From Octopus vulgaris (lineage: Eukaryota): 64,000 nt of DNA. The notes under the pieces are model-generated. The model saw only the letters and a program-made list of their open reading frames with translations, made no database searches and had not been told where the DNA came from. The DNA is taken from the NCBI GenBank assembly GCA_951406725.2, contig OX597834.1:25792001-25856000 (forward strand). Direction: 5' to 3'. Within the stretch, counting starts at the first letter, position 1. Each line of letters opens with the position of its first letter. Both the position numbers and the translations under genes were made by a program. Positions 17,495-60,966 of this stretch are shown piece after piece.

Positions 17495-17551
17495 CACTCT
17501 GATGAAGTTCCGCTATTCAAATTGGTATAATTAATTACTTACAATGATAAC

Positions 17552-17588
<37 letters not shown>

Positions 17589-17636
17589 GAGGTGGTTAAG
17601 CCTGGGAATTGCGCTAACGGAAACAGCTGTAAGATG
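17495..17636 (+). ncRNA. Hammerhead motif with an (ATT)n microsatellite in the stem II loop
   Basis: cact-CTGATGA(17499-17505)-aGTTccgctattc...gaattgcgctAACg-GAAA(17620-17623)-CAGCTG-TA-agatg. Stems I and II are imperfect. Confidence 0.5.
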
Positions 17637-17715
17637 AGATTCTGCCTTTTTGTAATTAATTAATATATGATAATTGGTGTAAATCAATTGTTACTCATCA
17701 ATTTTATCTCGATTT

Positions 17716-17794
<79 letters not shown>

Positions 17795-17878
17795 GTATAT
17801 ATAATTCCATACCACCATGGAACATTGATGTTAAATGATGTTACTATTATATATAGTAATATCATCATTATTATTATT

Positions 17879-17951
<73 letters not shown>

Positions 17952-18011
17952 CCATACCATCATGGAATATTGATGTTAAATGATGTTAATATTATATATA
18001 GTAACATCATC

Positions 18012-18072
<61 letters not shown>

Positions 18073-18106
18073 ATTGTATTTAAATATTTTCTTCTCTTCT
18101 TTTCAG

Positions 18107-18322
18107 GTTTGTCATAATTGCAAAGGTGAAATAGACTCGAAGGAGTTAATAATTGTTGCTAGCAAAATAACCGATTCTCTTTGCTGGCACCCTGCCTGTT
18201 TCATCTGCAGCGTCTGTGAAGAACTCCTTGTTGACTTGACCTATTGCCATTTCCAACAGAAGCTGTTTTGTGAACGCCACTTTGCTGAACTAGTTAGGCC
18301 GCGTTGTTTTGCTTGCGATGAG
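18107..18322 (+). CDS. Internal coding exon of a PET-LIM / LIM-domain gene (Limpet/LIMPETin-like; Prickle/Testin/FHL family): one full LIM domain plus the first CxxC of the next
   Basis: Polypyrimidine tract and acceptor ttttcttctcttcttttcag| (ends 18106), donor GAG|gtaagt (18323). The 72 codons read VCHNCKGEIDSKELIIVASKITDSLCWHPACFICSVCEELLVDLTYCHFQQKLFCERHFAELVRPRCFACDE, matching the LIM pattern CxxC..HxxCxxCxxC..CxxH. WHPACFxCxxCEELLVDLTYC...CERH is the Limpet/LIMPETin-type first LIM; Prickle typically has LVDLIYF. Confidence 0.93.
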
Positions 18323-19004
18323 GTAAGTGTCTGGTTAATTTTATTCGCAAGGAAAAAAATGTCTTTACAAAATGTATTCTCTCTCATTGGTTTTTGTCAA
18401 TGGACTCCAACCATACCAGGTCACCTTGCTCAATGGTTTTTGTCAATTATAGCAGCACCACCAGTATTTCGCCTGATAATTATCATATCAATTTCTCTTG
18501 CTGTTCTAAGTTGGTCCACGTTAGGTTCTTTTAGAGAATTGATTCCCTTTTAGGGATTTAATTAGCACAAAGTATTTACACCAGTATGCATGTGCACACA
18601 CACACACACACACAGTTGTCTTCTGCACAGTTTCTACCTGTCAAATTTTACTCTCCAAATGTTAGTTAATCCAAGACAGGTACCCAAAATGTCACCCAAT
18701 GGAATTGAGCCCAGAACCTAAAATTTGCAATTAAGATTCCTTAATCTCCTGTCCATATCGGCACAATTTCATTTTTCCCGATTTTATTTAATGTTGGCTT
18801 TCTTGTCAGATTTCTTCTTTGTATGTGACTTTGAAATATATTTTACAAATGCAGTAAAGTGTGTAAATCCTTTTATGTGTATCATCATCATCATCGTTTA
18901 GCGTCCGTTTTCCATGCTAGCATGGGTGTATATATATATATATATATACATACTTACATACATTATATTGTGTCACACTGTATACATATATACACAAGAA
19001 AAGA

Positions 19005-19234
19005 GGGCGGCGAGCTGGCAGAAATGTTAGCACACCGGGCAAAATGCTTAGCGGTATTTCATCTGTCTTTGTGTTCTGAGTTCAAATTCCGCCGAGGTTG
19101 ACTTTGCCTTTCATCCTTTCGGGGTCGATAAATAAAGTACCAGTTTTGCACTGGGGTCGATGTAATCGACTTAATCCGTTTGTCTATCCTTGTTTGTCCC
19201 TCTATGTTTAGCCCCTTGTGGGCAGTAAAGAAAT
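19005..19234 (+). mobile_element. SINE family B (ggcggcgagctggcagaa... head)
   Basis: B-box-like gagttcaaattcc and conserved cctttcatcctttcggggtcgata. Another + copy is at 3436-3670. Confidence 0.88.
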
Positions 19235-19249
19235 ATATATATATATATA

Positions 19250-19549
19250 CACATAAAAAACACCATCCGAGCGTGGCCGTTCGTCAGCCTCGTCTGGCAC
19301 CTGTGTCGGTGGCACAAAAAAACACCATCCGAGCATGGCCGTTCGCCAGCCTCGTCTGGCACCTGTGTCGGTGGCACATAAAAAGCACCCACTACAATCA
19401 CGGAGTGGTCGGCGTTAGGAAGGGCATCCAGCTGTAGAAACTCTGCCAGATCTGACTGGCCTGGTGCAGCCTTCTGGCTTCCCAGACCCCAGTTGAACCG
19501 TCCAACCCATGCTAGCATGGAAAGCGGACGTTAAACGATGATGATGATG
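19250..19549 (+). mobile_element. SINE family C copy, same subfamily as 14825-15267 but inverted
   Basis: Near-exact reverse complement, including the diagnostic ccgacacaggtgccagacgagg units. Confidence 0.88.
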
Positions 19550-20060
19550 ACACGAAGAAATAATATTTATCTCCTTTTACAGAAACCAAATGGTTTATAG
19601 GATTGCAAAAGAAGTGCTCAAATATAAATGAGACATGAAGATAATGTTTGTTCTATAACCATTATATCTGGCCAAAACATTCCTTTTATTTTACGGTCAA
19701 ACTGGCCGAGTGCAGCCGTGCAGTCTCTTAAATCTACCCTATAATGTCATACTAAAAACAAACTGCCCCATAATCAAAGTCCCAAAGCCACAAGATAATG
19801 CATGATTAACTCAAAACAATGTGAATAAATAAGCACAAACATTTGACAGAGTAATCTGAATGCTGAAGGATTAAGGTGAGTGTGCTACAGTGTGTGACAT
19901 GATAAGAGAAGGGGACTGAGGTGGACGCATTGAATATCAGTTTGCAGTGGAGAGGGGCATAACAGGATGGGAATATGATTGGTTTGGTAAAGGGGCAGGA
20001 AGTGATATTAATATATACATAACTACTTACATAATTATATACATTTTTATTAGAGCACTT

Positions 20061-20473
20061 ACTCTTTTACTCTTTTACTTGTTTCAATCATTTTGACTGC
20101 GGCCATGCTGGAGCACCGCCTTTAGTCGAGCAATTCGACCCCGGGACTTATTCTTTGTAAGCCCAGTACTTATTCTATCGGTCTCTTTTGCCGAACCGCT
20201 AAGTGACGGGGACGTAAACATACCAGCATCGGTTGTCAAGCAATGCTAGGAGGACAAACACATACACACAAACACACACACACATACACACATATATATA
20301 TACATATATACGACAGGCTTCTTTCAGTTTCCGTCTACCAAATCCACTCACAAGGCATTGGTCGGCCCGGGGCTATAGCAGAAGACACTTGCCCAAAATG
20401 CCACGCAGTGGGACTGAACCCGGAACCATGTGGTTGGTTAGCAAGCTACTTACCACACAGCCACTCCTGCGCC
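20061..20473 (-). mobile_element. SINE family A copy, full-length
   Basis: Near-identical to 1045-1446. Confidence 0.9.
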
Positions 20474-20478
20474 TATGT

Positions 20479-20519
<41 letters not shown>

Positions 20520-23500
20520 AATTATTGTATACAGTGCTCAGGTGTACTACAATTATGTCACAAGGTGGGGTATATTATTTCTGTTTGCTTTGTTCTACCT
20601 GGCTAGTGAAACAAACTACTTTTATTAAAGCATTGAGTCCGTTGCTGAGGTGGCAAATCTTTAAATAGCAAACATAACACTAAGTTTTATGCAAATATCC
20701 TAATTTGCATAACCCGGAAAAGCACATTATACCTCCCACCACCACCACCACCACCACCAATAAAACAATATAAAAAATAACTAGACCATATACACAATAT
20801 TGTATCAAATCACCATGTTTATTGTCTTTTAATTATCTCTAATAACGTTAATTAAAGCATATTTATAGACCCATTACTAATTGATTTTAAAAATGGCAAC
20901 AATACATTTTGTGAGGATTTTTTGTTTGTTTTCGTTTTTCAGTAACAAAAAAACTTAGCAAAACCATGAATTGTAATTTGATAGTTGATAATTTAATAAT
21001 GGGGCAAAGCCTAAACATTTTGAATAGAATAAATTTGTTTAGAGAAATTGATGTAATGTGATGTTATAACTCTTTGAGTTTTTGGTGTTTTTAGTTTTGG
21101 TCCTCAGATTTCCTCCACTACGGCTGCTAATGTTGTTTTGCATTGACATGTTTGCTATGACATTCAGTGTTTTATTAAAGCAGCTCTGCTTAAAGTTTTG
21201 AGTGTGGCCATGGTCGTGTGGTTTAAGGACATCACTTTGTAAATAAATAGCTATCCAAGGTAAACAACCAAAAAGACACACACACGCACATATGCATGGG
21301 ACTAACCTCTTTCTGTTGTGTCTGGGGAGAGTCATTTTCTTTTTGTGCCTTACAATAAAAATAAGAAATGAATGGAAATTAGTGTATACATATATACACA
21401 CACAACTGGCTTCTTTCAGTTTCCGTCTACCAAGTCTACTCACAAGGCTTTGGCTGGCCCAAGGCTATAGTAGAAGACACTTGCTCAAGGTACCATGCAG
21501 TGGGATTGAACCTGGAACCATGTGGTTGGGAAGCAAGCTTCTTACCACACAAGTGTGCCTGCACCTGCATATACATACATAGGCATACACATACATAGGC
21601 ATACACATACATAGGCTGGCTTTGTGACAAGACCCCGTGGTTGCTTCCCAACCATGTGATCTTGAGTTCAGTCCCACTGCATGGCAACCTAAACTTTGTG
21701 AATGGATTTGGTACATGGAAATTGAAAGAATCCTGTTGTGCATGTGTGTGTGTGTGTCTGCTTATCCCCCAACTACTGCTTAACTTGTATTGGTTTGTTG
21801 ATATCCCCATCACTCAGCGATTCAGCAAAAAGAGGTCATCAGAATAAGTACCAATAAGTACTAGGACTGACATGTTCAACTAAATCCTTCAAGTTAGTGC
21901 TCCAGCATGGCCTGAATCCAAACCCTGAAACAAACAAAAGCTACTCTCAAAGTGATAAGTTCTTTTTTTTGACAGTTGACTTATTAATTGGTTTCTGCTT
22001 ATCCTGATTCTATCTCCATGGCACGTGTCTTGGACAGATGTGATATGGTTGCTGGATGGCAGCTCCCTCCATCAGTTGAGAATGTGATGAGGAAGTACAC
22101 GGGTTCCCCCACCCTTTACAAATAAATAAGTTTCGTGTTCCTCAAAGGAAAACGAAATCATTTTTTTTTTTTTTGTTGCAATGGTGAGTGGGTTAGGGAT
22201 ATCAGTGTGGGGCAATAAATGTTAGGTAAACGAATCTGTTTTCTTTGAATATATGATGCTGAGAGAGAGAAGAGAGAAAACTTAGGTGGATGTGATTTGG
22301 TAGGTGGTGGTGATGATGGTGGGGGGGGGGGGTTTAGGAATAAGTTTTGGAAGAGAGGACACATTGAGATTCTTAGATAAGATGGTATCAGCAGAAGGTG
22401 AGAAGAGAAGGTGGGGTTTTGTGATAAAACTAACCAGGGAACAACACTATCTGAAGGAATTAAGTAGTTTTGCAGAACCATTTAAGCTATATCAGCATGG
22501 AAAAAAATAGAGAAGAGTCTTTGATAAAAAACGCTTCCATTCAGATGATACATCATTATACAGCTGATAAGAGATAAATTGTAGGTTAGAGGGTTAGTTA
22601 TTTACAGACTAAAGTGTCTTGAAGATTCTAACAAGGCTGCTATTGCTGCTGTTATTGTTATTGTTGTTGTTGTTGTAATAAGGATAGTGGATTGGTGGAA
22701 CCTTTAGAGCATTGGAAGAAGAATTGCTCCAAGGTCAGTGAAGTACAAGTCAAGTATGGAGTTGATATAGTCAACTTCACCCTCTTCCCAAAATTTCAGG
22801 CCTTGTGCCTGTATAACAAATAATAATAATATTAATAATAATAATAATAATAATATTAATGATAATCCTTTCTATTGAAGTCCTGAAATTTGGTGGGAGG
22901 GAGAGTCAGTTACATTGATACCAGAGCTTGACTGGTACTCTTTTCATTGACACCCAAAAGGATGAAAGGCAAAGTTGGAAGTTAGAACTTAGTAGAGCTT
23001 CACCTATTTTGTTATTATTACCATTGTTATGAATAAAATAATGAAGCCTCACCTGTTTTGCATTGAAACTATGTTCCAGCCTAACACTAAATTAAATTTC
23101 TAATTTATTTATAACAGAACAAATGTTAATGTTATCTTGAAAAATCTCTGCAACTGTGCATTCATGTGCTGTGCAACCAGTTGTGCAACATTGAAAATGA
23201 TTATACGATTATACTACGCAAATGAAATTTAATGCTTTTTTTTTTCTCTGAGAGAACTACTTTGTTCATGCTTTGATGCTGATAAATGACCAAATTTAGT
23301 GCTGTTGCAGTAGGAGTACATCTTCAAGATAGAAAGAAACAAAAATGAAATATTACAAAAGAAGGTGGCGTATTGTGGCCACTTTGGTATGGGATGAACG
23401 TAACAGGGAATGGTAATCTGGTAAATAATATTAAGCAGGGGATAAAAAAAAGGGGTTGAATAATCTATGTATCAATAAATTCGCTTGTAGCTACACACAA

Positions 23501-23954
23501 AGAAATGAACAGACACACACAGACACAACTCTCTCTCTATATATATATGGTGATGATGGTGATACATAAATATATATACATACATAAATATATATATACA
23601 TACATATACATATACACAAAAACACATACATACATACATACAAACATGCATGCATACATACATGCATACATACATACATACATGCATACATACATGCAAA
23701 CCTACCTACATACATACATACATACACACATACATACACACACATGTGCAGATGCATACACATTATCTTTGATAGCATAAAAGGCACAGAAACATAATGG
23801 ATGTACCTGAATTTCAGTAGTGCATATTAAAAGAGAAAAATTCTTAATGCATTAATGCATGTAATATTTTAAACAATCTAACACAAAACAATATTGTACA
23901 ATAATAATGCTTCAGTGAATATCATTATTACTATTACAGAATCAGGCTAGGTAT

Positions 23955-24340: not shown

Positions 24341-24735
24341 GCTAGGTACATGAGATCAGCTGGATTAAAGTTAGTCTATAGTTGTGAGTGTCGGGGACAA
24401 AATTAATTTATGGGGAGACCAATGTTGCATATAGGACCCAAGGTAATTTTTGTTTTATACATCAGAAAACAGGGTGTTTATATGCCATCAAATATGTACA
24501 TATATAGTTTACAGTTCTGTTGTAGGTAGAATTAAGAAAAAAGGTACTCTATCAGTGAGAGATAAATATAATTTATTACACACAATTTATAAAAGAGCTA
24601 CTAACAGTTTCATGCTTTAGAGTTACAAAGAATTGGCAGATTTATGTAACCTGCCAATTTATAGTATCTGTAAAGCATGAAACTATTAATACCTCTTTTG
24701 TAAATTGTGTATATATATAGTTGTGTATATATATA

Positions 24736-27479: not shown

Positions 27480-27745
27480 GGAGGCGCAATGGCCCAGTGG
27501 TTAGGGCAGTGGACTATTGGTCGTAGGATCGCGGTTTCAATTCCCAGACCAGGCGTTGTGAGTGTTTATTGAACGAAAACACCTAAAGCTCCATGAGGCT
27601 CTGGCAAGGGGCGGAGGCGATCCCTGCTGTACTCTTTCACCACAACTTTCTCTCACTCTTTCTTCTGTTGGCATAATTTGAAGGCTAAAACAATGCGAAG
27701 CACATTGTGACCAGTGATGTGAAGCAACATCTGATAGCCTGGTTG
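27480..27745 (+). mobile_element. SINE family D copy
   Basis: Same head as 23955-24340. Confidence 0.82.
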
Positions 27746-27859
27746 TCATAATAAAACTCAAGAGCCGGGGCTGAAGTCTGCTCCGGCATCTCATCAGTTA
27801 TTAAGACAAACAAAAATGCCTGTATAGGTTATTTCCTCACTAAAACCACTATTTGTCTT

Positions 27860-27920
27860 AATAACTGATGAGATGCCAGAGCAGACTTCAGTCCTGGTAT
27901 CCGGAACTCTGAGTTTTATT
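27860..27920 (+). ncRNA. Hammerhead motif with GAAA->GGAA change, in one arm of a long inverted repeat
   Basis: aataa-CTGATGA-GATGCCAG...CTGGTATC-c-GGAA-CTCtGAG-TT-ttatt. Stem I 5 bp, stem II 8 bp. Confidence 0.55.
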
Positions 27921-28145
27921 ATGACAACCAACTGATTGTCACATATTACATTTATAGATAAATTCCTCTATTTACATAATATCGAGGTCTCATTCATTCT
28001 TTTGTTATATTATTATTATTAATATGTATGTGTGTATATATATATATAACGGGAAGGTTTACGAAAATAAACAAAAGACGAAGGCAGGTGGAGTACAAAC
28101 AAACAAATGTATTAGTATGGTGCTCAGGAATAGAAATAGAACAAG

Positions 28146-28183
28146 TCTTTTACGTTTCGAGCCTATGCTCTTTGACAGAAAGA
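28146..28183 (-). ncRNA. Degenerate minimal hammerhead-like motif in a short TA-flanked element (about 28048-28220)
   Basis: The minus strand reads tcttt-CTGTCAA-a-GAGC-atag-GCTC-GAAAC-GTA-aaaga. Confidence 0.4.
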
Positions 28184-29288
28184 TACACAGAACATAAACA
28201 AGGAGAGAAAAAATTGTGTGTATATATATATATATAAATACAGTGTACATTTAACCACTTAAGAGATGAATAATATATAGTCTATTGACTTCCAAGGAAG
28301 AATAACTGTTGTTCAACTCTGAACCAAGAAATGTCTATCCTTCGGATTATCTTTTCTCTTAAAAGACGGCAGGAGTGTAATTTGGGGGAACTTATTTTAT
28401 ACTGTGCCTGTATGGCTGTGGGGGATGAGAAGTCTGATTTGAGCCACATGGTTTGGCCTGCAATTCCATTGGACAAATGTCTTCTGTTATAGCTCTAAGC
28501 TGACCAAAGCCTTGTAAGTGGATTTGGTAAATAGCAACTGATAAAGAAACCTGTATATACGTATGTATATGTGGCTGTGTGTGAGCATATTTCGTGTAGC
28601 AGACATTTCTTGTTGGTTAGGATAACATCCAAGAAGATCGTCAAGATAAGAACCAATAGGACTGTTAAGATAAGAACTAATTAGCAGCATTCTTAATTCC
28701 AAAATCTACCACACTGCGGTATCAATTAAATAACGAGCTAACAGTAGCGTCTGTCTGCGGTTACTTAATCTGCTGGAAATAGCTGCCCAATCTCTCTCAA
28801 ATTCCTCTTACCATCTTGGAGAAAGAAAGAAAGACATATTGATTTAGTCATGTGAGTGTATATGTGTGCATGTCTGTCCTTCTGTGTGTATGTATGTGGA
28901 TGTGTGTCTACCTTTCTCTCTGTCCCTCTGTGTGTGTGCGACATGTATCTTCTGCTATAGCCTCAGGCCAACCAAAGCCTTGTTAGTGAATTTGGTAGAC
29001 AGAAACTGTAAAAAACCCATTGTATATCTATATCTGTATTTATCCATCCATCTATGTTTGTGTGTCTGCGTTTGTCTCCTCACCATTGCTTGACAACCAA
29101 TATTGATGTGTCTATGTCCCCGTAACTTAGCAGTTTGGCAAAAGACACCGATAATAAGTACTATGCTTACAAAGCATAAATTCTGAGGTCAATTTGTTTG
29201 ACTAAAGGTAGTGCTCCTGCATGGCCACAGTCAAATGGCTGAAACAAATAAAAGAGTAAAAGAGTATATATATTTATGCATGCATACA

Positions 29289-29610: not shown

Positions 29611-29736
29611 AGTTGACGAGTTAAGAAATAATTAAGATCCACTTGAATTAGGTACTAAAGATGAGGTACTAAGTCTGTCCAGTATTGTCTGTACAGCTCG
29701 AAGTTAAGTGAATAAAAAGCAAATATGTTACAAGTG

Positions 29737-29823
29737 TGCATTACGGCTGTTTCAAGTGGCTCCATTTAATCAATCAATGCAAGTATTACAACAATTTGAA
29801 ATAACCCGCTTTCCTCAGATGCA
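29737..29823 (-). ncRNA. Type I minimal hammerhead ribozyme motif
   Basis: The minus strand reads tgcat-CTGAGGA-AAGcGG...CCaCTT-GAAA-CAGCCG-TA-atgca. Stem I is a perfect 5 bp and the site is GUA. Confidence 0.65.
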
Positions 29824-30391
29824 TAAGACCATATAGGTTTTCAACATACAGGATACTCCATTACAATTTTTTAGGAAATTTTTCATTAGAACTCGAGAAT
29901 AAAAGAATTACATGCTTATGTCTGTTATTGTAGCAGAATGATACAATATATAAATGCACATGTACATATTATGCACATGTATTATAAAAAACTATAATCC
30001 AAAAATATCCATAGTTAAACATATAAAATTGTTTAGTGACTCTTAAGAGGAGTGATGTCATCGCATAGTTGTGTTGTTGTATGTAAAACAGGCAAATAAC
30101 AAGATTAAAGTAGTATTAAAATTTTAATTGAAAAACTGAACCATAAGCTTCATGGTTTAAAAAGAGCTATTGTAATAAAAGGAAACTCATAAAAGAAAAC
30201 CATAAACCAGAAATCACTATTCCTTGGTTACTTGAGAATTCAATAGTAGATTCACCCACTTGCACCTGGTAACTAGCATACTGGCAATATCACTAAATAT
30301 GCACTGCAAAGGTGTGACCTTTAAATGAATAGAGATGTCTGTACTGAAAAGCTTTGGATATACTCTTAAAATATTAGGAAAATTATCTTAC

Positions 30392-33636: not shown

Positions 33637-35167
33637 TGTTTATTATTATTATTATTATTATTATTATTTGAAACAGAATCTCACATAAAAAATTACTCTT
33701 CCAAATCCTTACTTGTTCAACTTGCCGCAAACCACCAAGTGCTCTAAACATATGTTCACCTTGCCATATGTACAATGATGTCTACCTGATGTAGTATAAT
33801 ACTGTTATTTACCAAAAGATCAAGTTCACCCATACACTGCACTGCATTCATGTGCAGGCTTCACCAGCTCGTTGGGGCATTGTTTTAAAAGTTCAGTTCC
33901 TTTTTTGACAGATATTGTATTGGTATGTATGTATGTGTGTATTTGTGTATACAAATGTGATGTGTGTGTACATATGTGATATATGTGTATACATATACAT
34001 ATATGTCATGCTTATCATTATTTAACATCTTACTGTCCAAACCTGCATAAATGCAATGTATTGAGGTAGATTTCCTGCACCTGGATGCCCTTCCTGTTGT
34101 CAACCCTCACTTGTTTCCAAATAAGGTAATATTTCCCAATGACCAGACATGTTTTCACAGAATATTAGAAATAAATGACACTACTTGTATGACCATGGCA
34201 ATTGTTTACAACTATCATACAAAATCAACCAAAGACACAGACACATGGATAATATATATGTATATTTATATATACACACACACGATGAACTTCTTGTACT
34301 ACTTGTTAGTACCCTTAATTATTAATTGATAATTTTTTACCATTATGGGGTTTTTACACATGCTAAGCCACTGATATTATTATAAACATGAGAGAAAGAA
34401 AATGAAATTGACAAAACCTTTTATTCGCTACAATCATTTCAATCCTGTTGCTTGTACAGTGTCTCATTTGTGAGGTATTGGTGCATGATGGGTTGAGACG
34501 ATTGTAGGGAACAAAGAGTCTTGTGAATTACATTTTCCTTCTCTTATAGTTTTATAAACTCTACTGACACAAAGGAATTTCTTAAGTAAATCCATCAAGA
34601 CGATAGTTAACATCAGGTAGCCAAATACTGTGAACAGGCTTTAAACAGCACACTACAAGGTGTATACCTGATTATAAAATCACACACACACACACATACG
34701 TGTGAGACCTCCCTATAGACTATATTTCTGAATTCATACGTCCCAGTGTGTGTCTATAACACTTACTGACTACTCTGTTGACTTCATGATAAATGTAGTT
34801 TTATAATTAATTGCAGCATCTTACACAAGTGGCAGCAGTACTGCCACTACCTCATTTGCATAAGATGAACGCATTCTACTTAATTATAATTAGATTATGT
34901 CAGAAGTGAGAAAGAGAGATGATATACAGTTTAATATATCATTGCTGCTTAGTGTTGGTTTATGCTCAGAGGAAAGATAGAGGTAACCTTCACAGGGTTT
35001 TCAACATAGAGGATATTCACATTATACACTTGAATGTGTAAATGTTTATATATGTGAAGTCTCTCTCTCTCTCTCTCTCATATGTGTATATATATATATA
35101 TCTCATACTGTGTACAACTCTGAGGGTGTCTGAGTGTAGCGTTGTGGGTGTATATATATATATATCA

Positions 35168-38989: not shown

Positions 38990-39273
38990 AATATTTAAGT
39001 AGGTGAATGAATTATCCTATGTTTATCGTTAGCATGGAATGAAAATATGCTGTCTTCGAAACATGTGTCGAGAGTAAAGGAATTTTGTTAACATCTTCGT
39101 TCAACTCCATTCTATCATTTATTCATATATATATATATATATATTATATAGTGATAGTTAATGAAATACGTTCAAATGTATGTATACTTTATATATAGAT
39201 ATATATATATATTTATTTTATAGTAGGAGCTTCTACAGGACTAGAACTGTTTCATTCAGATGAATCTTCAGGA

Positions 39274-39324
39274 AGCTTCCTGAAGATTTCATCTGAATGA
39301 AACAGTTCTAGTCCTGTAGAAGCT
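39274..39324 (+). ncRNA. Type I hammerhead ribozyme motif (intact core), mirrored on the - strand
   Basis: agcttc-CTGAAGA(39280-39286)-tTTCAtcTGAAt-GAAA(39299-39302)-CAGttctagtcCTG-TA-gaagct. Stem I is 6 bp and the predicted GUA cleavage is after 39318. Confidence 0.75.
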
Positions 39325-39406
39325 CCTTCTATAAAATAAATTACTTTACTCTGCTATGTATTGAGTACCTTATTTACTGTGGTTAACCCCGACTCAACCC
39401 GGGACC

Positions 39407-39441
<35 letters not shown>

Positions 39442-41012: not shown

Positions 41013-41696
41013 TGGAATTTTATATAGTATGAATGTGTTGTCTATTAATATTTTTCTATCTGGTTTGTTGTTTATTGTGCAGTGGACTGTGTTGTATTTG
41101 TTTTCTTTTTTTTTTTGTTTTTTTTTAAATGTCTGATAAACCTACAAAAGAGTGTACGATGAGTGTATATACATTTATAACATATATATAAAATGTGTGT
41201 TTACAAATATATGTGTGTATATGTATATATGTACATGTGTGTGTGTGTGTGTATTTATTTAATAACATTTTGACCCAGCTCCTCATTACATAAACTTTCG
41301 TAAACATAGAAAACATTCGCCTCATTAGATGTCTGTGGAGGAGCGTGGAGAATTTAAAAGAATTTTTAAATGGCATCTAGCTATGTAGGCCTTGATTTGT
41401 CAGTTCGGATCACATGATTGTTTATGCTATCAAGTAACATCAATTACTTTACTGTTAGGGCCACATGGTACAGACGTGATGTTGGCATAATCTTTGTCAG
41501 TCCTCTGCAGGATTATATTCAGCAACACCAGTTGTTTACGTTGGATACCGCACATGGTAAGGTAGACGAGATATTAGCATCAGCCGGTCAATTTGACATC
41601 ATTCTGTAGAGCTTGGTACTCTAGCTACAACGTACGTACATACGTATGTATGTATGTATGTATGTATGTGTTGTTGTTGTTGTAGTAGTAGTGGTA

Positions 41697-41911
41697 GTAG
41701 AGCTGAAAACGAGGCAATTTCTACTCTTCTCCTCTGGAAGCCGTCTACTCGCAACACCAGAGGGCGCACACTCTCCTACCCTGATGTAATCTCCAGGGAT
41801 ACAGGCATCCAGCAACAGGACCTCCGTAATGCTATGATGGACTGTGAAGTCTGGTGTAGCATGGTAAATTCCATTGTCTCGACCACAGTCGAACAATGAT
41901 GGATGATGATG
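41697..41911 (+). mobile_element. Short 3' fragment of the same RTE family
   Basis: Near-identical to 47727-47940 (RAENEAISTLLLWKPSTRNTRGRTLSYPDVISRDTG...VEQ*) with a tgatggatgatgat tail. Confidence 0.9.
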
Positions 41912-42780: not shown

Positions 42781-43031
42781 ATACACACACACACACACAC
42801 ATGCAAACCACACTTCCACATACTCATGTATTTATACACAGATTGTATATATATATATATATATATGAATGTCTGCTACTCAAAAATTTGATGACAGAAG
42901 ACAGGAAACGATCGTAGTGGATATTAATTATATTTTTTAATAATATCTAAATTATATAAATTAATTTAGTATATGTTGGCTTAAGTCTTTCATTGTTTGA
43001 TTTGCATAATAGTGGTTTTGTCTCTAATTTA

Positions 43032-44564: not shown

Positions 44565-44819
44565 TATATGCATATATATATATGTCAAACAATTTCTGAA
44601 ACTACACTACCCCTAACATCTGGCCACCTAACTACCCAGACTGCCAGCCCCCTGATTATTATGTGTGGGACACAGCTGGGTGAGAGACTAACAAAACTCC
44701 TTGTAACATCAAAGATGAACTGAAGGCAAGGATTATGGCAGCATAAGAGAATGAGATGCTGTAACGTCACAAACTTTGCTCCATCTTGATGGCCTTCCTT
44801 TCCTCTCATTCCTGTTCAA

Positions 44820-44900
44820 GGCTCTGATGAAGCTATGTGGTGTTATTCGGGCACTCAACTATGAATCCACTATATCTCATAGCAGAAACAGCTGTTAGCT
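44820..44900 (+). ncRNA. Type I minimal hammerhead ribozyme motif
   Basis: ggct-CTGATGA(44824-44830)-a-GCTATG...CATAGC-a-GAAA(44885-44888)-CAGCTG-TT-agct. Stem II is 6 bp, stem III is palindromic, and the site is GUU. Confidence 0.7.
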
Positions 44901-44946
44901 AATGGAGTTGATAAGACAATCATTTATTGCTTTATCTCATTTTCTC

Positions 44947-44995
<49 letters not shown>

Positions 44996-45010: not shown

Positions 45011-45752
45011 TATATAAGTTTATATATGAGGATAATATCGATATTTAAGTATCAAATTATCAAGTGGCCAGCATGAAAAAAATACCTTACAAAGGTAAAA
45101 AATTTTTTAACAATTAAAAATGAGGGTGTCTGAAAGACACCAACATGCCGAAATAGCAGTCGAAATTCTGACTATAAAACCACGTTAAATGTTCATATCG
45201 CACCATGAGGTAAAGCGGAGGGACAAAACATACAAGCAAAAATTATTGAAAAATTCAAGATCCAAGGATTTCTGGTTCTGCTTTAAATAAGCTTTACCGT
45301 CATCAATTGAATATATCAAGGGTACATAAATACAGATTTATATATGCACAGCAAACGATATACTTACACATACGAGCGTCGCACATACATACATATGCAC
45401 GTATGGACACAGCCAGTTGAATTGCCCGCCAAATCAGCGCATAAATACGATATGGTTAAAATAAGCACCGCAGTGAATATAATAACGAATTATATAAGTT
45501 TATATATGAGGATAATATCGATATTTAAGTATCAAATTATCAAGTGGCCAGCATGAAAAAAATACGTTACAAAGGTAAAAAATTTTTTAACAATTAAAAA
45601 TGGATCTTGAATTTTTCAATAATTTTTGCTTGTATGTTTTGTCCCTCCGCTTTACCTCATGGTGCGATATGAACATTTAACATGGTTTTATAGTCAGAAT
45701 TTCGACTGCTATTTCGGCATGTTGGTGTCTTTTAGACACCCTCATTTTTAAT
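45011..45752. mobile_element. Penelope-like non-autonomous remnant: direct terminal repeat plus inverted segment, between (TA)n tracts
   Basis: 45011-45122 is repeated directly at 45491-45602. 45601-45752 is the near-perfect reverse complement of about 45113-45264. It contains a hammerhead 3' half (cc-GAAA-TAGCAG...CTGaCTA-TA) near 45148-45177. Confidence 0.6.
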
Positions 45753-45902
45753 TATATGTATATATATATATTGATTGATTGATAAATAGAAACATATGTA
45801 GATGTAATTGTGTATATGTATATATGTATGCATATATGTGTGTGTGTGTATGTATATATGAGTATATATAGATGTATGCTTATATGTGTATGTATGAATC
45901 TG

Positions 45903-46730: not shown

Positions 46731-47040
46731 CACCGTGATCACCGTGACCGACCAGGGTATCAGATGTTGCTACACACCGCTGGTCACAATGCGCTTCGCA
46801 TTGTTTTAGCCTTCAAATGATGCCACCCCGCTGGCTAAGCGAGCAGGCCAACAGAAGAAAGAGTGTGAGAAAGTTGTGGCGAAAGAGTACAGCAGGGATC
46901 GCCACCACCCCCTGCCGGAGCCTCGTGGAGCTTTAGGTGTTTTCGCTCAATAAACACTCACAACGCCCGGTCTGGGAATCGAAACCGCGATCCTACGACC
47001 ACGAGTCCGCTGCCCTAACCACTGGGCCATTGCGCCTCCA
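46731..47040 (-). mobile_element. SINE family D copy abutting the RTE fragment head-to-head
   Basis: The head ends ...gggccattgcgcctcca at 47040, directly before the RT sequence. Confidence 0.85.
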
Positions 47041-47943
47041 TATCGCCCCATTTCTTTTCATCATTGTTGTTGATTATGTGCTACGTATGTCAGTTGATAC
47101 CATCTCTGGCAAGGGCTTTGAAATAAAACCAAGAAGAAGTTCCAGACACCCAGCTGAGTACTTGACAGACACTGACTTTGCTGACGACATCGCTCTTATC
47201 AGTGATTCTCTCTCCAATGCCCAGTCTCTCTTACAATCTCTTGAACAAGCCTCAAATTGTGTAGGTCTTTACCTCAATGAGACCAAAACTGAATACATAA
47301 ACAAGTGCCTGTCCAACAGTGATTGCATCATCCACACTCTCAACAGTGCACCTTTAAATATGGTTTCTGATTATAAATATCTTGGGTCATACATATCATC
47401 ATCTGGAAAAGACTTTCTAACTAGAAAGGGTATGGCCTGGTCAGCCTGTAATGACATGCATAAGATCTGGTCATCAAATCTAAGTAGAGACTTCAAACTT
47501 GAAATATTCAAAGCCACAGTCGAACCAATCCTACTATATGGCTCAGAAACCTGGACGTTATCAAAGAAGCTTGAGAGGCGGTTGGATGGAACCTACACTC
47601 GCCTCCTTATGAGAGCTCAAAATCTCTCGTGGAGGCGCCATCCAACTAAAATGCAAATATATGGGAAATTACCACCTGTGTCATCTCTTGTGAAAGGTAG
47701 GAGAGTCCAGTTTGCTGGACATTGTTGTAGAGCTGAAAAAGAAGTAATTTCTACTCTTCTCCTCTGGAAGCCATCTACTCGCAACACCAGAGGGCGCACA
47801 CTCTCCTACCCTGATGTAATCTCCAGGGATACAGGCATCCAGCAACAGGACCTCCGTAATGCTATGATGGACTGTGAAGTCTGGCGCAACATGGTAAATT
47901 CCATTGTCTCGACCACGGTCGAACAATGATGAATGATGATGAT
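47041..47943 (+). mobile_element. 5'-truncated RTE-clade LINE, reverse transcriptase C-terminal part, still in frame
   Basis: APFLFIIVVDYVLR, DFADDIAL (RT catalytic), GLYLNETKTEY, YKYLGS, PILLYGSETW, RRVQFAGH; stop at 47929 followed by a (TGA)n tail. Confidence 0.92.
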
Positions 47944-51459: not shown

Positions 51460-51555
<96 letters not shown>

Positions 51556-51598
51556 TTTTTCCTCTGTCTTCCCTTCTCGGGACCTTTCCTTCTCCTAT

Positions 51599-51633
51599 GT
51601 TTCCGACGAAGAGCTCCGCTCGAAACGTCAAAC
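51599..51633 (+). ncRNA. Ultra-minimal hammerhead-like motif (PLE type), U4C variant
   Basis: gttt-CCGACGA-a-GAGC-tcc-GCTC-GAAAC-GTC-aaac. Stem I 4 bp, stem II 4 bp, ACGT palindrome in place of stem III. The element is bounded by (TA)n on both sides (about 51550-51686). Confidence 0.55.
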
Positions 51634-51807
51634 CCTCCTTCTTCCCTTCTTTCCTGAGCGTCCAATAATACTTTATTTGTTCCACATATATATATATATA
51701 TATACACACACACTCTGTTTCTATCTTCTTATACATATAAAAAGTTGTTTTACGTATGTGTGTATATAGAGAGACTGTATATATCATGGGTCTATGTCTA
51801 TATATGT

Positions 51808-53339: not shown

Positions 53340-53343
53340 ATAT

Positions 53344-53406
<63 letters not shown>

Positions 53407-53524: not shown

Positions 53525-53605
<81 letters not shown>

Positions 53606-53850: not shown

Positions 53851-54696
53851 GACTGACATGAGCATACATGTATGCATGTACACACATACCCAACACACCC
53901 GACACACACATACACATGTATGCATATATACTGGTGTAGATATAGCTCACTCTCTAAATATGTTGCTTTAGGTTCAGTCCTATTGTGTGGCACCTTGAGT
54001 AAATGCTTACTACCATAGCCCCAGGCCAATCAAAACCTTCTAAGTGGTTTATGCAGATGGAAATTAATGTAACTCATAGTGTGCGGGTTGGGTGGGGTGG
54101 GGCTATTGTCTGCTTGTGTGTTTGTTTCTTCTTCTTGTCCTGACATCACATAATAATTGTCAACAAATGTCACCAGCCAGCAGATTATTTGCAGCCTTCC
54201 ATGAAAGCATGTCTGGCTGTTGTGCTGTTCATGTTCGTAGGTCTAGAGGAAATATTACCTTGCTTGGTAACAGCTGAATGTTGGCAACAGAAATGCTGGC
54301 AGATTTTCTAAGAAATTTACAAGCATCAAAAAGTGGATGTTGAAGTGATGATGATGACTCTGTGTGTGTATGTGTGTACACATTTACGTGCACAAATGCA
54401 AGCTTACTTTTGCTTCTCGTTGGGTAGTTTTTAAGCCAGTTTTCCTTTTCTTATACATAAATCTTTATATACATCTTCATCATCTTCATCATCCTCATTC
54501 ATCATCACTATCATTATAAATGTCACTGACATCAGCTAATAAACATACTAGATTTCAAAATTATTCTTTAATTCCTTAAAAACCTGCCAAAATATCACCA
54601 GTATTTCGCCCAAATAATTAGAGGTTATACCTTAATTTGGAATGAACCAGATGACCTTGAGGAAATAACTAAAGAGAGGAAGAAAAGGTCAATAAC

Positions 54697-54929
54697 CTAT
54701 TTCTTTATTACCCACAAGGGGCTAAACACAGAGGGAACAAACAAGGACAGACATAGGTATTAAGTCGATTACATCGACCCCAGTTCGTAACTGGTACTTA
54801 ATTTATCGACCCCGAAAGGATGAAAGGCAAAGTCAACCTCGGCGGAATTTGAACTCACAACGTAACGCAGACGAAATACCGCTAAGCATTTTGCCCGGCG
54901 TGCTAACATTTCTGCCAGCTCGCCGCCTT
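54697..54929 (-). mobile_element. SINE family B copy with an apparent target-site duplication
   Basis: Flanked by gtcaataacc on both sides (54688-54697 and 54930-54939). Confidence 0.88.
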
Positions 54930-56254
54930 GTCAATAACCATTGAATTCCAATAGATATTGATAACATATTGATACTTCCTGCTTTTAGTTCTGTGACTTT
55001 CTAAATATTTTTGTAGGTTTTTAGAGGACTTTTTTTTTTCTTTGTTTTTTTGGAGGCTCATGAAATATTGTTAGAAAATATATTAGTTTCTTTTCCTTTT
55101 CTTTTCCTTCTTCTTTGTCTTGTTGTTGTTGAAGCTTACAATGCCTAAATGATCAGTTTCAAATTCTGGCACAAGGCTTGTAATTTCAAAGAATGCAGAA
55201 TAAGTTGATTACATCAACCCCAGAGTTCAACTGGTACTTATTTATCGACCCTGAAAGGGATGAAAAGTAAAGTCAGCTTTAGTGGAATTTGAACTCAGCA
55301 CATAAAGACAGACAAAATGCCTCTAAGCATTTTCCCCAGTGTGCTAACAATTCTGCCAGCTCACTGCCCTACAATGCCTAAATTATCACTCGTTAACATC
55401 ATCGTTGCTTTCATATCTGTTTTTCCATGCAAGCATGGGTCAGATGAGATTTGTTAAGTCAGGTTTTCTACAGCCGGATGCCCTTCCTGTTTCCAAGTAA
55501 AGTGATATTTTTCCCAAATCTGGACATGTTTTCACAGAAGATTGTAAATGATGGTTTTGCTTGTTTTAAAATTAGTATGCAATATCAAGTCAAACAGACA
55601 CACACACACACTCACTGCACCTACATACATACATACACATGTACACAATGTTCATAGACAACAGATTAGTGTGTATAGAGTCTATATAAGATACATGTAA
55701 TAAAACTGCATAGATACTATGGAAAACCACAGACAAGCTAAACTAGGAAAATGGAGCCACTATTTATGAAACCAAATCCAAAACATTCCAGAGCACACCT
55801 GTCTATTTTGGACAAATGCCTCACAAAATTTATTTCCTCAACTCACTGCTTTCTCAAAGACAACTCTTAGGATTATCGCAGTTGATGGAGCTGATGCTAC
55901 AAAATATAATACTATCGATGGCTTACAACACAGGAAGCTGGCTACTGCAACAACAGTTTTCTACAAAATGCTCACAAGTTACTGACTAGACTACCGAAAG
56001 TGGTCTAGCACTACCAACATAGTATAAAAGGTACCTCTTTACAAAGGCCATTACATCCATGCCTGTGCACATGACCCCTTAACACTTGATGCTTAGACCT
56101 GCACTCTTGACTGAAGCATTCTGTACGCAACTCACAAAATTTGAAACAGAATTCTGGAGACCATCACAAGAGTGAACTTGAGATAAAAGCTAAGTGCACA
56201 ACCAACACTTGTCATTCACAACATGGGAGCTACAGGGAACCAATGATTGACCTA

Positions 56255-56692
56255 TTAAAAGCAAGAGTTATAACCAACAATGCTAATGTTCAAAAGTGCA
56301 TGGCTATAACCATCATCATCATCATCGTTTAACGTCTGCTTTCCATGCTTGCGTGGGTTGGACGATTGCTGGCATGGGTTGGTCTGAGGTCTGGCAAACC
56401 AGATGGCTGCACCAGGCTCCAATCTGATCTGGCAGAGTTTCTACAGCTGGATGCCCTTCCTAATGCCAACCACTTAAAAGCAAGAGTTATAACCAACAAT
56501 GCTAATGTTCAAAAGTGCATGGCTATAATCATCATCATCATCATCGTTTAACGTCCGCTTTCCATGCTTGCATGGGTTGGACGATTGCTGGCATGGGTTG
56601 GACTGAGGTCTGGCAAACCAGATGGCTGCACCAGGCTCCAATCTGATCTGGCAGAGTTTCTACAGCTGGATGCCTTTCCTAATGCCAACCAC
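56255..56692. repeat. 219-bp tandem duplication spanning a flank/SINE junction
   Basis: ttaaaagcaagagttataaccaac...cctaatgccaaccac starts at 56255 and again at 56474. Confidence 0.9.
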
Positions 56693-57377
56693 TCTGAGAG
56701 TGTAGTGGGTGCTTATACGTGCTACCGGCACGAGGGCCAGTCAGGCGGTACTGGCAATGGCCATGCTCAAATGGTGCACTAGCAATTTTTATATCACATA
56801 TACACATATATTAGTGCATGTATAGATGAGTGTGTGTAAATACAAACACATACACATATATACATACATAAACACATTCATGTGAATCTGTGTGTGTGTG
56901 TGTACATACATCTATGTTAATATGTTCTTATATTACCATAATTTCTTCTGTCTAAGAATTTGGATAAATTCTTTTATTTACTTAGGGATTGTCATTGGGT
57001 GATGTGAGTGTATATGTGTTCATGTATTACAGGTATGTAAATACACACATATTTATATTGTATATCACTACTCATATATACATATACCTGTATTTGTCCT
57101 TGTTGTTCATATACATGTCACTAGCCACCCTGAGTTATTTCTCTTAGCACATATTTGTTTGAATTATGCACATATATATATGTGTGTGTGTGTGTATGTG
57201 TGTAAGTATATACATATGTCTACTTATATGTGTGTCTAAATATATATATGTATGTGTGTATATATGCACACACACATACATGAAGAGTCACTGGAGGAGC
57301 TAAAGCCCCACAAGGTCTGTGACCTGAGCTGATTCAGGGGAACCCATGGAATTAACCATTATCTTATAAACCTCATT

Positions 57378-57450
57378 AGTTTTCAGCTGTTTCTGCTATA
57401 AAATGCAGTGAACTCATAGTCGAGTAACACCTTATAGCTTCATTGGAGTC
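57378..57450 (-). ncRNA. Decayed copy of the 44820-44900 hammerhead family
   Basis: The minus strand reads gact-CCAATGA-a-GCTATAA...TTATAGC-a-GAAA-CAGCTG-AA-aactaatg. Core and cleavage site are mutated; stem II pairing is kept. Confidence 0.45.
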
Positions 57451-58048
57451 ACAAATAAAAAGTACCTATATATATAGGTACTTTTTATTTATGACTCCAG
57501 TGAAGCTATATGTATAATATATATACACATATATATATATCTTTGTACATACACACACATAAATGTGTATGTATAGGCACACATACATAGTTGTGTTTTT
57601 ATATATATAGACATTCTCAGTAGATTTAGGTTGTACATTATTTGTTGTATGATTATCACAAAGCATTGACCACAGTGTTTATAGCAATGGCTACCAATTG
57701 TCAGCAATAAAGACCATACACAATGCTGCTGTGGGTTGCACAGGTTTACAATTTCTCATAATTACAAGTGTCTGTCTAACACTAACCCTAACTTTGTTAT
57801 ATTGCTGTGTGACCTGTTTCTGTTATTCTAATTATGTGTTCATGTATTACAGGTATGTAAATACACACATTTTTATGTTGTATATCACTACTCATATACA
57901 CATAATTGTTGTTCATATACATGCCACTGATCACCCTGAGTTATTTCTCTTAGCTCATATTTGTTTGAATTATACACACACACAGGTGTGTGTGTGTGTG
58001 TGTGTGTAAGTATATACATATGTCTGCTTATATCTGTGTCTAAATATA

Positions 58049-58082
<34 letters not shown>

Positions 58083-58431
58083 CATACACACACACACACA
58101 TACATGTAGAGTTGCTGGAGGAGCTAAAGAAATGTTTTGCACATGAGTTTAGTGTTTAACTATTCAACCATAAAATGTCTCTGTATCTATTCAGTTGTTT
58201 GTTTTGTCAGTTTTTCCATGCTAGTACTGGTTAGGTGAATCTTATCGTTAAAGCATTGTTTTATAGTTTGATGCCCTTCCTGTAGCTAATCCATGCCTGT
58301 TTTTCAAGTAAGAGATCTATTACACATTTTCAAGGGTGTGAAGCAAGAGGACAGTTTGTTGATAGAAGTGACCATAGTGACAACACTCATTGTGCAAACA
58401 AATACATGTGCACACACAGTCACAAATAGTT

Positions 58432-58822
58432 ACTCTTTTACTTGTTTCAGTCATTTGACTGTGGCCATACTGGAGCACCACCTTTAGTCAAGCAAATTGA
58501 CCCCAGGACTTATTGTTTGTAAGCCTAGTACTTATTCTATTGGTTTCATTTGCCGAACCACTAAGTTACGGGGATGTAAACACACCAGCATCGGTTGTCA
58601 AGCGATGTTGGGGGGAAGGGGGACAAACACAGATACACAAACATATACACACATGCACATACAACGGGCTTCTTTCAGTTTCCGTCTACCAAATCCACTC
58701 ACAAGCTTTTGGTCAGCCCGAGGCCACAGTAGAAGACACTTGCCTAAGGTGCCACACAGTAGGACTGAACCCAGAACCATGTGGTTAGTAAACAAGCTAC
58801 TTACCACAGCCACTCTTACGCC
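58432..58822 (-). mobile_element. SINE family A copy
   Basis: Sequence identity to the family by eye. Confidence 0.88.
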
Positions 58823-60541
58823 TTAAATATAATTTTTACAAGCCATTATCAGATTGATGGTGGCTAGTATGATGAAGACATTAGACTTATCTTTTTGTGC
58901 TCTCCATAGTCATCAATAGAGACAGGGTAAGTCAATTATATTTAGAAAATACATAACATTGTATGTATTATATAACTATATTTATAATCATTCCTGCAAT
59001 TTAAAGTGTTAGTCTTCAACTGTTATTTCTTTCAAAGAACTCAGAAATACACTTGTATTTCCTTATTCTTTGGAAAACTTTAATTTTTTCATCATCAGTT
59101 CATCATTATTTAATCTCCATGTTCCATGCTAGCATGGGTTGGACAGTTTTACAGGTTCCAAATGGTCCAAGCACTGCATTGTGCTCCAATCTCTGCTTTG
59201 GTATATACTTTGTACAGCTGGATGCCCTTGCTAATGCCAACCACTTTACGGTGCTTTTCTTTTTGCATGCCACTGACACTAGTGAGGTTGTCATGCAAAA
59301 CAGTAATTCATTTTGTCTTTTCCTTGGAAATTTATACTAAACCAATCTGCTATCAGTGGTGATTAAATGATAGAAATTCTCTTTTCCACTGATGATCATA
59401 GTAAGCATATGAAACACTAGTCCTAATGACTGAAGCAATTTTAATAGATATTTATTTAAAATCTACTTTACAGATATTTTTACCACTTAGTCAGATGAGG
59501 AAGAGCAATGATCCTTTTCAGGGTTTCTGAGACTAGTGGAAAGGAAGGAGGGCAAAAGGAGGTTGTCCTTACAATAGAAACTTGGCCTATAGTTTTACCA
59601 CATGGAGCTTAAATCTTTGTTGGTTAACCACTGATTTCACAAAGGATTAGCAAACAAGTACGCATGTGTTTTTTGTAGTTACAGTAAAATATGGATTATT
59701 GTAAAGCAACAACCAAATAATTGTATGACTAATAGACACACACATTTACATTTTACAGATATTTCACACCATGTATATTTCTAATTTCGGTTCATAGTTG
59801 TCTTAATACTTTAGTTCCCATCAGATAAAGTAATCTGAGAATAGAAGAAAGAAATAATTAAATTCTTCTTTTTGGTACATTTTTTTAGTTGAAATAAGCC
59901 AAGTTCTAATATTTCCATAAAAAGTTCTTCCTATGTTCCCACAGAAACTACAAATACCATTCTTTAAACGTATGTATTGTATGCATGTATATGTATGTGT
60001 ATGTACATATGTATTGTATGAAGTTCTTGTTAATCTTTTAGATACCAATCCATCTGAGATTGTCCTTGGCTCTATAATACACACTTCCTGTTGGTTTAAA
60101 TTAAAACCTTCTATCAAAATTTTATGTTAATTTATGTTCCAAATACTAGATTATATATCTATAAAAAATTACTTTAATAAATTCTTTAATATTTTCAAAA
60201 TTAATTGAAACAAGGGCAGTGTATTTCAACAGGAATATCATAACCGAAGGGTTTAAGATATTTTAATTCATGTGGTTTTGTGAAGTTATTGGGTTATTTT
60301 TCTCAGATACTCTCATTCTTTATCCTTTACTTGTTTCAGTCATTAGATTGTGACCATGCTGGAGTACCACCTTGGGGAATTTTAGTCAAATGGATGGTGG
60401 CCCTACCTTCCACATTTATTTTTTTGAAAGCCTGGTACTTATTCTGTTGATCCCTTTTGCCAAACCATTAAGTTACAGGAATCTAAAAACACCAATACTA
60501 GTTGTCAAGCAACGGGTGGAGGGACAAGCACAGACACAAAT

Positions 60542-60575
<34 letters not shown>

Positions 60576-60581
60576 ACATGG

Positions 60582-60619
<38 letters not shown>

Positions 60620-60928
60620 ATACCGGAGTAAACACATAAATGTGACACAAGGTGGAAAAAAGAGTACTCAAATACCAGTGGTAGAGTAATATGCTTTATT
60701 TAAAGCAGCAGAAAATTCAACAAAACCTGTTACTCTGAGTTTCCTGTTGCCGTTCATCGGCAACTGGGAAACTCAAATTAACAGTATCTCATAGCTTTTG
60801 ATTGAATTTTTTGCTGCTTTAAATAAAGTATATATATATATATATAGGGAGAGTTTACAAAAAAGACAAAGAAAGGTGGTGTACAAAACAAACAGATGTA
60901 TTAGTATAACGCTCAAGAATAGAAAAAG

Positions 60929-60966
60929 TCTTTTACGTTTCGAGCCTACGCTCTTCTACAGAAAGG
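60929..60966 (-). ncRNA. Minimal hammerhead-like motif (A6U core variant), same family as 28146-28183
   Basis: The minus strand reads ccttt-CTGTAGA-a-GAGC-gtag-GCTC-GAAAC-GTA-aaaga. The surrounding 60847-61000 aligns by eye with 28051-28220. Confidence 0.45.

Follow-up and report, generated by a model that had tools for sequence, protein, structure and literature searches.

The DNA analysed here is a 64,000-nucleotide stretch of the Octopus vulgaris genome (assembly GCA_951406725.2, contig OX597834.1, C21 in what follows), covering C21:25792001-25856000 of a 2.80-Gb genome in 227 contigs; we call this whole stretch the window and give positions within it. An earlier note, made from the sequence alone, had described in it a swarm of type I hammerhead ribozymes inside the introns of one gene, and our subject is what these ribozymes belong to. 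The sole host exon within the window encodes a LIM domain and shares 99% identity with a Prickle-like PET-LIM protein of Octopus vulgaris, which maps exon by exon over C21:25.66-25.92 Mb on the plus strand. This exon separates introns of ~30 kb and ~77 kb and the window is otherwise intronic, so the exon mapping bears out the location that the note gave for its loci. The features are as follows, with ribozymes named by the position and strand of their core, repeat families by letter, and PLE standing for Penelope-like element.

17495-17636, plus strand: hammerhead-like motif, core 17499, with a (TAT)n run in its ~95-nt loop II, palindromic stem III, GUA site and weak stem I; family not found
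18107-18325, plus strand: LIM exon of the Prickle/Testin-like PET-LIM host gene, the only host exon in the window
27739-28020, plus strand: family D, assigned to Hydra-type PLE 3' ends; inverted arm (core 27797-) and sense arm (core 27865+)
28040-28230, minus strand: family A copy, assigned to Neptune-type PLE 3' ends; core decayed to CTGTCAA at 28178
29700-29830, minus strand: hammerhead, core 29818, with long loop II, 5-bp stem I and broken stem III palindrome; relatives in loci L072, L192 and L255
37740-37900, minus strand: decayed family A copy
39211-39409, plus strand: family C, assigned to young Hydra-type PLE 3' ends; inverted arm, intact hammerhead (core 39280) and ~69-nt tail, in (TA)n
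42872-43030, plus strand: 3' end of a further repeat family with a decayed hammerhead, lying in (TA)n
44807-44948, plus strand: family B copy, intact core 44824, palindromic stem III, GUU site; parent open reading frame (ORF) not found
45011-45753, minus strand: retrozyme-like insertion of family G, in which an ORF-less unit of 482 nt repeats circularly over 595 nt (45011-45602, core 45306), with a 153-nt inverted arm (45601-45753)
51555-51690, plus strand: family A copy with a minimal hammerhead, the core (51603) being the family's U4C form and stem III having no loop
57348-57450, minus strand: family B copy, core decayed to CCAATGA, GAA site
60625-60833, minus strand: family E, young 3' end and inverted arm; the core (60760) is U4C, and the 5' strand of stem I is missing at the junction; no parent ORF found
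60845-61005, minus strand: family A copy, core decayed to CTGTAGA at 60961

A strict hammerhead descriptor matched the window at 2 places and none of 20 local dinucleotide shuffles; with one core mismatch allowed there were 5 hits against 0.4. A relaxed descriptor also gave 5 hits, compared with a mean of 0.17 and a maximum of 1 in 30 shuffles, although it had been loosened once after missing 39280 and 45306, so its window figure is tuned. The comparison with shuffled controls had been proposed with the original prediction, and the motifs exceed chance. One of the five relaxed hits, 20985+, with G where the cut would fall, appears to be a chance match, and together with an unsupported remnant at 34490 it is what favors reading the motifs as chance matches in repeat-rich DNA. 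Against that reading stand a 30- to 50-fold excess over shuffles and the family A motif, of which the genome holds 14,430 exact copies and none of the reversed pattern. (A canonical-core pattern for family A, which we discarded, found only 558 copies and misrepresented the family; the figure of 14,430 comes from allowing C at position 4, U4C, and any base at position 7.) Stem I pairing across families is also against it: in 400 kb elsewhere, the core boxes alone gave 24 hits with 15 distinct flank pairs, and 11/15 of these form at least 3 bp with their own partner, compared with a mean of 2.7 when partners are swapped (maximum 8 in 2000). Ordered core boxes with stems I-III therefore occur above chance and pairing is kept across divergent sequences, in agreement with the claim that several unrelated families each keep their own stems. 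For the main loci chance is refuted and has a negligible probability overall, and the hammerhead motifs in the window are real and of a known kind. An Rfam scan of the window showed no hammerhead among the matches listed (150 of 263), which are microsatellite-driven and of microRNA type.

Many of the individual copies are no longer intact. Three of the ten loci that had been listed with the full hammerhead order (17499+, 39280+, and 44824+) have core, GAAA, paired or palindromic stem III, and NUH site unchanged on the named strand, while the others carry core changes. The full core and stem pattern is found in 39280+, 44824+, and the majority of each family, but not in most of the decayed window copies. 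The hammerhead at 39280+ is intact, with a predicted cut after 39318, and 44824+ has an intact core with the site GUU where its family's own is GUA. In 17499+ the core is intact, but stem I is bulged and has 2 bp and loop II is ~95 nt long; no relatives of it were found in 1.0 Mb of loci. The 29818- copy is nearly intact, with an unchanged core and a 5-bp stem I, but its stem III palindrome is broken and stem II has a mismatch. Of the rest, 39271-, in an inverted arm, has a 1-nt deletion within stem II, 51603+ has the core CCGACGA (U4C), and decayed cores are seen in 60961- (CTGTAGA), 28178- (CTGTCAA), and 57446- (CCAATGA, with a GAA site). The 27865+ copy has GGAA in place of GAAA and its partner 27797- has lost GAAA, and 60760- has the core CCGATGA, the 5' strand of its stem I being gone at the inversion junction. 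Among the weaker remnants that had been proposed, 37841- belongs to family A and 42888+ to another repeat, both in decayed form, but 34490 lacks a core and has no relatives among 1.0 Mb of loci, and "45148+" is the wrong place and strand, since the ribozyme of that element is 45306-. At 59389-59430 (+), a place missing from the original list, CUGAUGA is followed by GAAAC, but the stems do not close and there is no relative in 1.0 Mb of loci.

The idea of a swarm special to one gene does not hold. With the relaxed descriptor, 40 other 10-kb stretches (round coordinates on 25 contigs, not strictly random) yielded 27 hits over their 400 kb (4.3 per 64 kb, compared with 0.08 in shuffles), and the window has 5. 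The cluster is thus at genome background density. Flanks of the searched loci were rejected as a density background because PLEs nest. Extrapolation gives ~190,000 motifs for the genome (Poisson range ~125,000-275,000) with a descriptor that admits variant cores. The roughly ten-times larger axolotl genome has 126,247 hammerhead motifs by a stricter descriptor, so the octopus total may exceed that of the axolotl, given the rough range of our estimate. The rest of the host gene has 4 descriptor hits per 200 kb, and profiles of the window families give 2 hits in those other 200 kb. As side observations, this remainder (C21:25662001-25792000 and 25856001-25926000) has few hammerheads despite a similar (TA)n density, and an intact copy in sense orientation is found within the host gene, ~30.7 kb before the window starts.

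To identify the parents of the ribozymes, we collected the best 30 loci for each family with 1.5-kb flanks (L numbers denote these loci). Family A has four members in the window (51603+, 60961-, 28178-, and 37841-), and its copies share a common 3' end at (TA)n and differ in their 5' ends. Upstream of the ribozyme is a CA-rich 3' untranslated region (UTR) and then, in 5/30 loci (L302, L312, L316, L325, and L329), the C-terminus of a Neptune-type endonuclease, which has the same orientation as the hammerhead and precedes it by 1.0-1.25 kb. L325 also has similarity to reverse transcriptase (RT), and L303 and L304 contain a CX4CxxC linker with GIY-YIG, which conforms to the CX2-5CxxC linker before GIY-YIG of the Neptune clade. 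By its sequence, then, family A is identified as the 5'-truncated 3' end of a Neptune-type PLE.

Family C is young, with 36/40 scored candidates, the window copy included, identical over 136 bp. The complete arrangement, in L139, runs from an inverted arm through RT (YRDDG), a CxCX5C linker, endonuclease, 3' UTR, hammerhead, and tail to (TA)n, and is supported by L138 and L144 (3/9 long family C loci). The RT piece matches the genome's own 781-amino-acid PLE protein (E 4e-8) and none of the solved structures, and among the Atlas neighbors that the endonuclease piece has at 0.95, GIY-YIG is present in 17-18% of members. In family D, a Hydra-type endonuclease end lies ~0.8-1 kb upstream in 4/30 loci (L215, L231, L214, and L217). 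The features of the Hydra clade, a CxCX5C linker with CxxC and CxH around conserved E and N, are present in L139 and L138 of family C and in L215 and L231 of family D. Families C and D are on these motifs identified as 5'-truncated 3' ends of Hydra-type PLEs.

Families A and C thus show the coding sequence of endonuclease-positive PLEs, and D shows it by its endonuclease end only. None of the three is a closed ORF-less unit of the kind seen in retrozymes. Because the longer A, C, and D copies run unbroken into RT/GIY-YIG coding sequence, we read the short units as dead remnants, truncated at the 5' end, of coding PLEs. The predicted link between type I hammerheads and Penelope is therefore correct, but the description of the units as non-autonomous derivatives fails for these three families and holds, in form, for family G only.

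The genome also holds intact PLEs, with many 781-amino-acid ORFs that carry RVT_1 and GIY-YIG and are ~99% identical. A very young Neptune-like PLE of this kind, with 781-amino-acid ORFs and a ~1.4-kb upstream region, is found in L061-L076 (e.g. C5:1040000-1048000). This family ends in a hammerhead with U3-A8 and a weak stem I, followed by a tail, and among Neptune copies only L064 starts at the cleavage site. A PLE beside a family C copy in L057/L077 was considered as the parent of family C and rejected, since it ends 300 bp earlier and has its own ribozyme. Within the window, tblastn with two PLE protein types found no PLE coding sequence.

The way the units sit in the genome is also that of PLEs. 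A (TA)3 follows the 3' end in 29/29 copies of family C, 24/26 of family E, and 26/36 located ends of family A (of 56), against a background of 7%, which confirms the (TA)n association and microsatellite targeting suggested earlier. Inverted arms are found in 15/29 copies of family C, 23/26 of E, and 11/29 of D, and these arms are without the last 65-100 nt, that is, without the tail; in family G, 15/26 loci have an inverted arm. Between near-identical copies of C and of E, the inversion junctions differ. All the marks of PLE insertion are therefore present (5' truncation, an inverted upstream copy, a one-sided tail, and a (TA)n target), although inverted arms were not counted for family A. We propose that, as known PLE biology suggests, the GIY-YIG endonuclease would nick (TA)n and the RT would prime at the 3' end of the element, usually stopping after 100-300 nt. 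A second priming event could then produce the inverted arm, joined at microhomology. The ribozyme would serve RNA processing of the parent element, probably as a dimer, and would be a passenger in the stumps seen in the window, where cores have decayed after insertion.

Family B is large, with ~1,300 first-look candidates at 81-88% identity, and family E is young, at 96-99% identity, and carries the PLE insertion marks (inverted arm and (TA)n). Families other than A, C, D, and G are likely also PLE 3' ends. These two families bear on a different explanation, that the units are mostly self-propagating non-autonomous mini-elements, like retrozymes or short interspersed nuclear elements (SINEs), with a life cycle of their own. 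Such a form is true of family G, B and E have no ORF link, and many family A copies begin near one place, 75-85 nt upstream of the core. In contrast, PLE ORFs are reached in the longer copies of A, C, and D, copies that are otherwise nearly identical differ in their 5' ends and inversion junctions, and the shared starts fall at a self-complementary 4-mer in C or at microsatellite-like sequence in A, both probable microhomology hotspots. We consider mini-elements an unlikely account of the units as a whole.

Family G differs from the others in that it consists of a closed 482-nt unit with no ORF. It is young (95-99% identity), with ~1,570 candidates, and the hammerhead at 45306- has a 6-bp stem I, U3 with G8, and an AUC site. 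From 30 fetched loci we removed three overlapping ones and one segmental duplicate, leaving 26 distinct loci. Of their arms, 40/41 end at unit position 143-152 or 248-249, so that there are two fixed 3' ends, while the 5' ends are scattered. Copies reach 1,313 nt, or 2.7 units, two or three ribozymes in tandem are found in L272, L277, L283, L285, and L294, and 12/15 inverted arms cross the cleavage site. There is no pile-up of 5' ends at the cleavage site (2/41 arms within 6 nt, with the sense arms selected to span the site). Divergence is 1.2% between laps of one insertion and 0.9% for inverted arms, compared with 2.5% between loci. This low divergence within insertions is consistent with copying of one template, and applies alike to a circle and to a homogeneous uncut tandem. 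Since the copies are up to 2.7 units long and run through the cleavage site, the template would likely be either a circle or a multimer left uncut. A search for RNA data sets that contain the G unit listed none.

A sister family, 74% identical and with a canonical core, has ~1,670 candidates and a closed unit in L415; no parent ORF was found for it. Between the ribozymes of G and its sister there is one compensatory pair only, not beyond shuffles (45/500). Two conserved hairpins lie just inside the inner fixed 3' end of the G lineage (window 45120-45185 (-), and also L080, L084, L097, L103, and L147), and in the second both partners of one pair have changed with pairing kept; they are a candidate priming or recognition signal. 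Family G has the sequence characteristics of non-LTR (non-long terminal repeat) retrozymes, a short ORF-less head-to-tail unit with one type I hammerhead each, and this retrozyme-like repeat is likely mobilised by PLE enzymes. A bolder proposal, which we give slightly less than even odds, is that G and its sister are retrozymes and a PLE RT-endonuclease copies their circular RNA lap after lap and integrates it in trans, that the most successful octopus families have multiplied while carrying presumably slow core variants (U4C, G at the cut site, or U3 with G8), weak or absent cleavage being tolerated or favored, and that the genome has ~100,000 hammerheads. If this is true, G insertions are a direct genomic footprint of the proposed partnership between retrozymes and PLEs, and the family offers a way to test whether retrozymes move via circles and PLE enzymes.

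Based on all of the above, we believe, with a probability of roughly 85%, that the window motifs are PLE hammerhead 3' ends (A, C, and D directly, the others likely) present in (TA)n at genome-average density, with G an ORF-less repeat likely moved by the same enzymes. Several observations weigh against this. Pfam detects no RVT_1 or GIY-YIG in the ORF pieces of families C and D, so their assignment comes from motifs, pairwise similarity, and Atlas neighbors rather than from a tree. Exactly the palindrome centre of the window copy is found in 8/29 family C copies, which could mean a self-copying mini-palindrome, although this shared centre, a self-complementary 4-mer, is likely a microhomology hotspot. 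In families B and E (29 and 26 loci), no ORF was found in the short stretch of upstream sequence that the copies share, 17499, 29818, and 42888 were also not traced to an ORF in the best 30 loci per search, and tblastn with the two PLE protein types found no parent PLE for G in 30 loci. Finally, the window-family profiles give 13 hits in the window against 29 in 400 kb elsewhere (4.6 per 64 kb), an excess in a contrast biased toward the window, since the families were picked from it.

Core variants are common among these families. In family A, 69 of the first 100 matches listed have C at position 4 (counted by eye), and a subgroup has G at the cleavage position (14/30 family A-motif loci). U4C is found in 20/26 right arms of family E, and U3 with G8 in 23/26 family G loci. 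The U4C change is reported to reduce activity in vitro considerably but still to permit viroid infectivity (PMC3088659). This was the only paper we found on hammerheads and U4C, and Lunse et al. 2017, on small PLE hammerheads, may already report cores of this type. Young families with natural core variants are ready test cases for the role of the hammerhead in PLEs.

Sense copies had been expected to be transcribed in the host pre-mRNA and possibly to cut it, in which case the cluster would be a feature of the Prickle-like gene that affects its output. All loci are intronic, four sense copies have a canonical or family-native core (17499, 39280, 44824, and 51603), 17499 and 44824 have the same palindromic stem III and could in principle pair, and the motif-poorer other 200 kb of the gene could reflect purging. 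On the other hand, window density equals that of the genome sample, and of the 13 family hits in the window, 6 are sense and 7 antisense. Just one of the sense copies, 39280+, is both young and canonical, and with its inverted arm, which is transcribed first, it is predicted to form a single hairpin of ~68 bp (-100 kcal/mol) in which all ten core positions have an unpaired probability of <=0.02, so the core would be locked. The palindromic stem III of 44824+, 51603+, and 17499+ would need a partner, and 27865+ is without GAAA. In vitro, single minimal PLE hammerheads did not cleave and dimers had low activity (PMC4209133). Given these predictions, cutting of the host pre-mRNA is unlikely, the host gene is likely an unaffected bystander, and we regard the cluster as a functional feature of the gene as very improbable.

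Insertions with inverted arms form long near-perfect intronic hairpins on either strand, at 39211-39340, 60690-60830, 27739-27950, and 45011-45753. A-to-I (adenosine-to-inosine) editing is extensive in cephalopods, and these hairpins are possible substrates.

The window has further features outside the ribozyme families. A duplicated stretch richer in GC is found at 109-274 and 1594-1757, and a 97-codon open frame with no Pfam match lies at 6269-6562, outside the mapped Prickle-like isoform. At 46937-47929 (+) there is an RT fragment (RVT_1) of long interspersed nuclear element (LINE) type, the 3' end of which recurs, 95% identical, at 41694-41911. An abundant repeat of ~400 bp is present at 1045-1447 and in ~25 other places, and there are also further SINE-like families, one of which has internal tandem repeats of 62-67 bp (e.g. 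6836-7223 and 14825-15268).

As a local feature, the window motifs are ordinary PLE debris, and what they add to known systems is their density in the octopus, the variant cores, and the retrozyme-like family G. Among titles in the literature on hammerheads with Penelope, octopus, or cephalopods, we found no octopus hammerhead survey. A 2026 octopus repeat paper reports active Penelope families, and the words "hammerhead", "ribozyme", and "retrozyme" are absent from its main text.

The octopus motifs resemble the type I hammerheads of metazoan PLEs (Cervera and de la Pena 2014, PMC4209133) in their short stem I, the extra nucleotide before stem II, and an absent or palindromic stem III. They also share with them the many divergent families per genome, mostly single motifs of truncated PLEs, opposite-strand pairs 100-700 bp apart, and the U3-A8 core variant, here in the young 781-amino-acid family. 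The estimated octopus density is much higher, at ~66 per Mb by our own descriptor, whereas theirs counted ~9,000 motifs in Xenopus tropicalis. The commonest octopus family (A) and E have U4C as a native core, and G occurs at the cleavage position in a subgroup of A; in the portion cited, that study makes no mention of either.

Like the Neptune and Hydra PLEs described by Craig et al. 2021 (PMC8557442), the octopus elements have a C-terminal GIY-YIG, a CX2-5CxxC (A) or CxCX5C (C and D) linker, (TA)n targets, an inverted 5'-truncated copy, a tail at one end only, and a hammerhead near the 3' end. Tails in octopus are ~65-100 nt, compared with 30-40 nt in theirs, and the octopus clades are placed by motif, not by a tree.

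Family G is most similar to animal non-LTR retrozymes (PMC7229834; Li et al. bioRxiv 10.64898/2026.07.22.740005), with which it shares the ORF-less head-to-tail unit with one type I hammerhead each, low GC, and dispersed copies from monomers to near-trimers. Its unit of 482 nt is slightly longer than their 150-450 bp, and its core has U3 with G8. In the portion cited, Li et al. argue for mobilisation by PLEs from co-occurrence and terminal homology and call the mechanism open. The G insertions themselves bear PLE marks, namely two fixed 3' ends, a tail, an inversion, and a TA target, and the cited portions of those two papers give no evidence of this kind.

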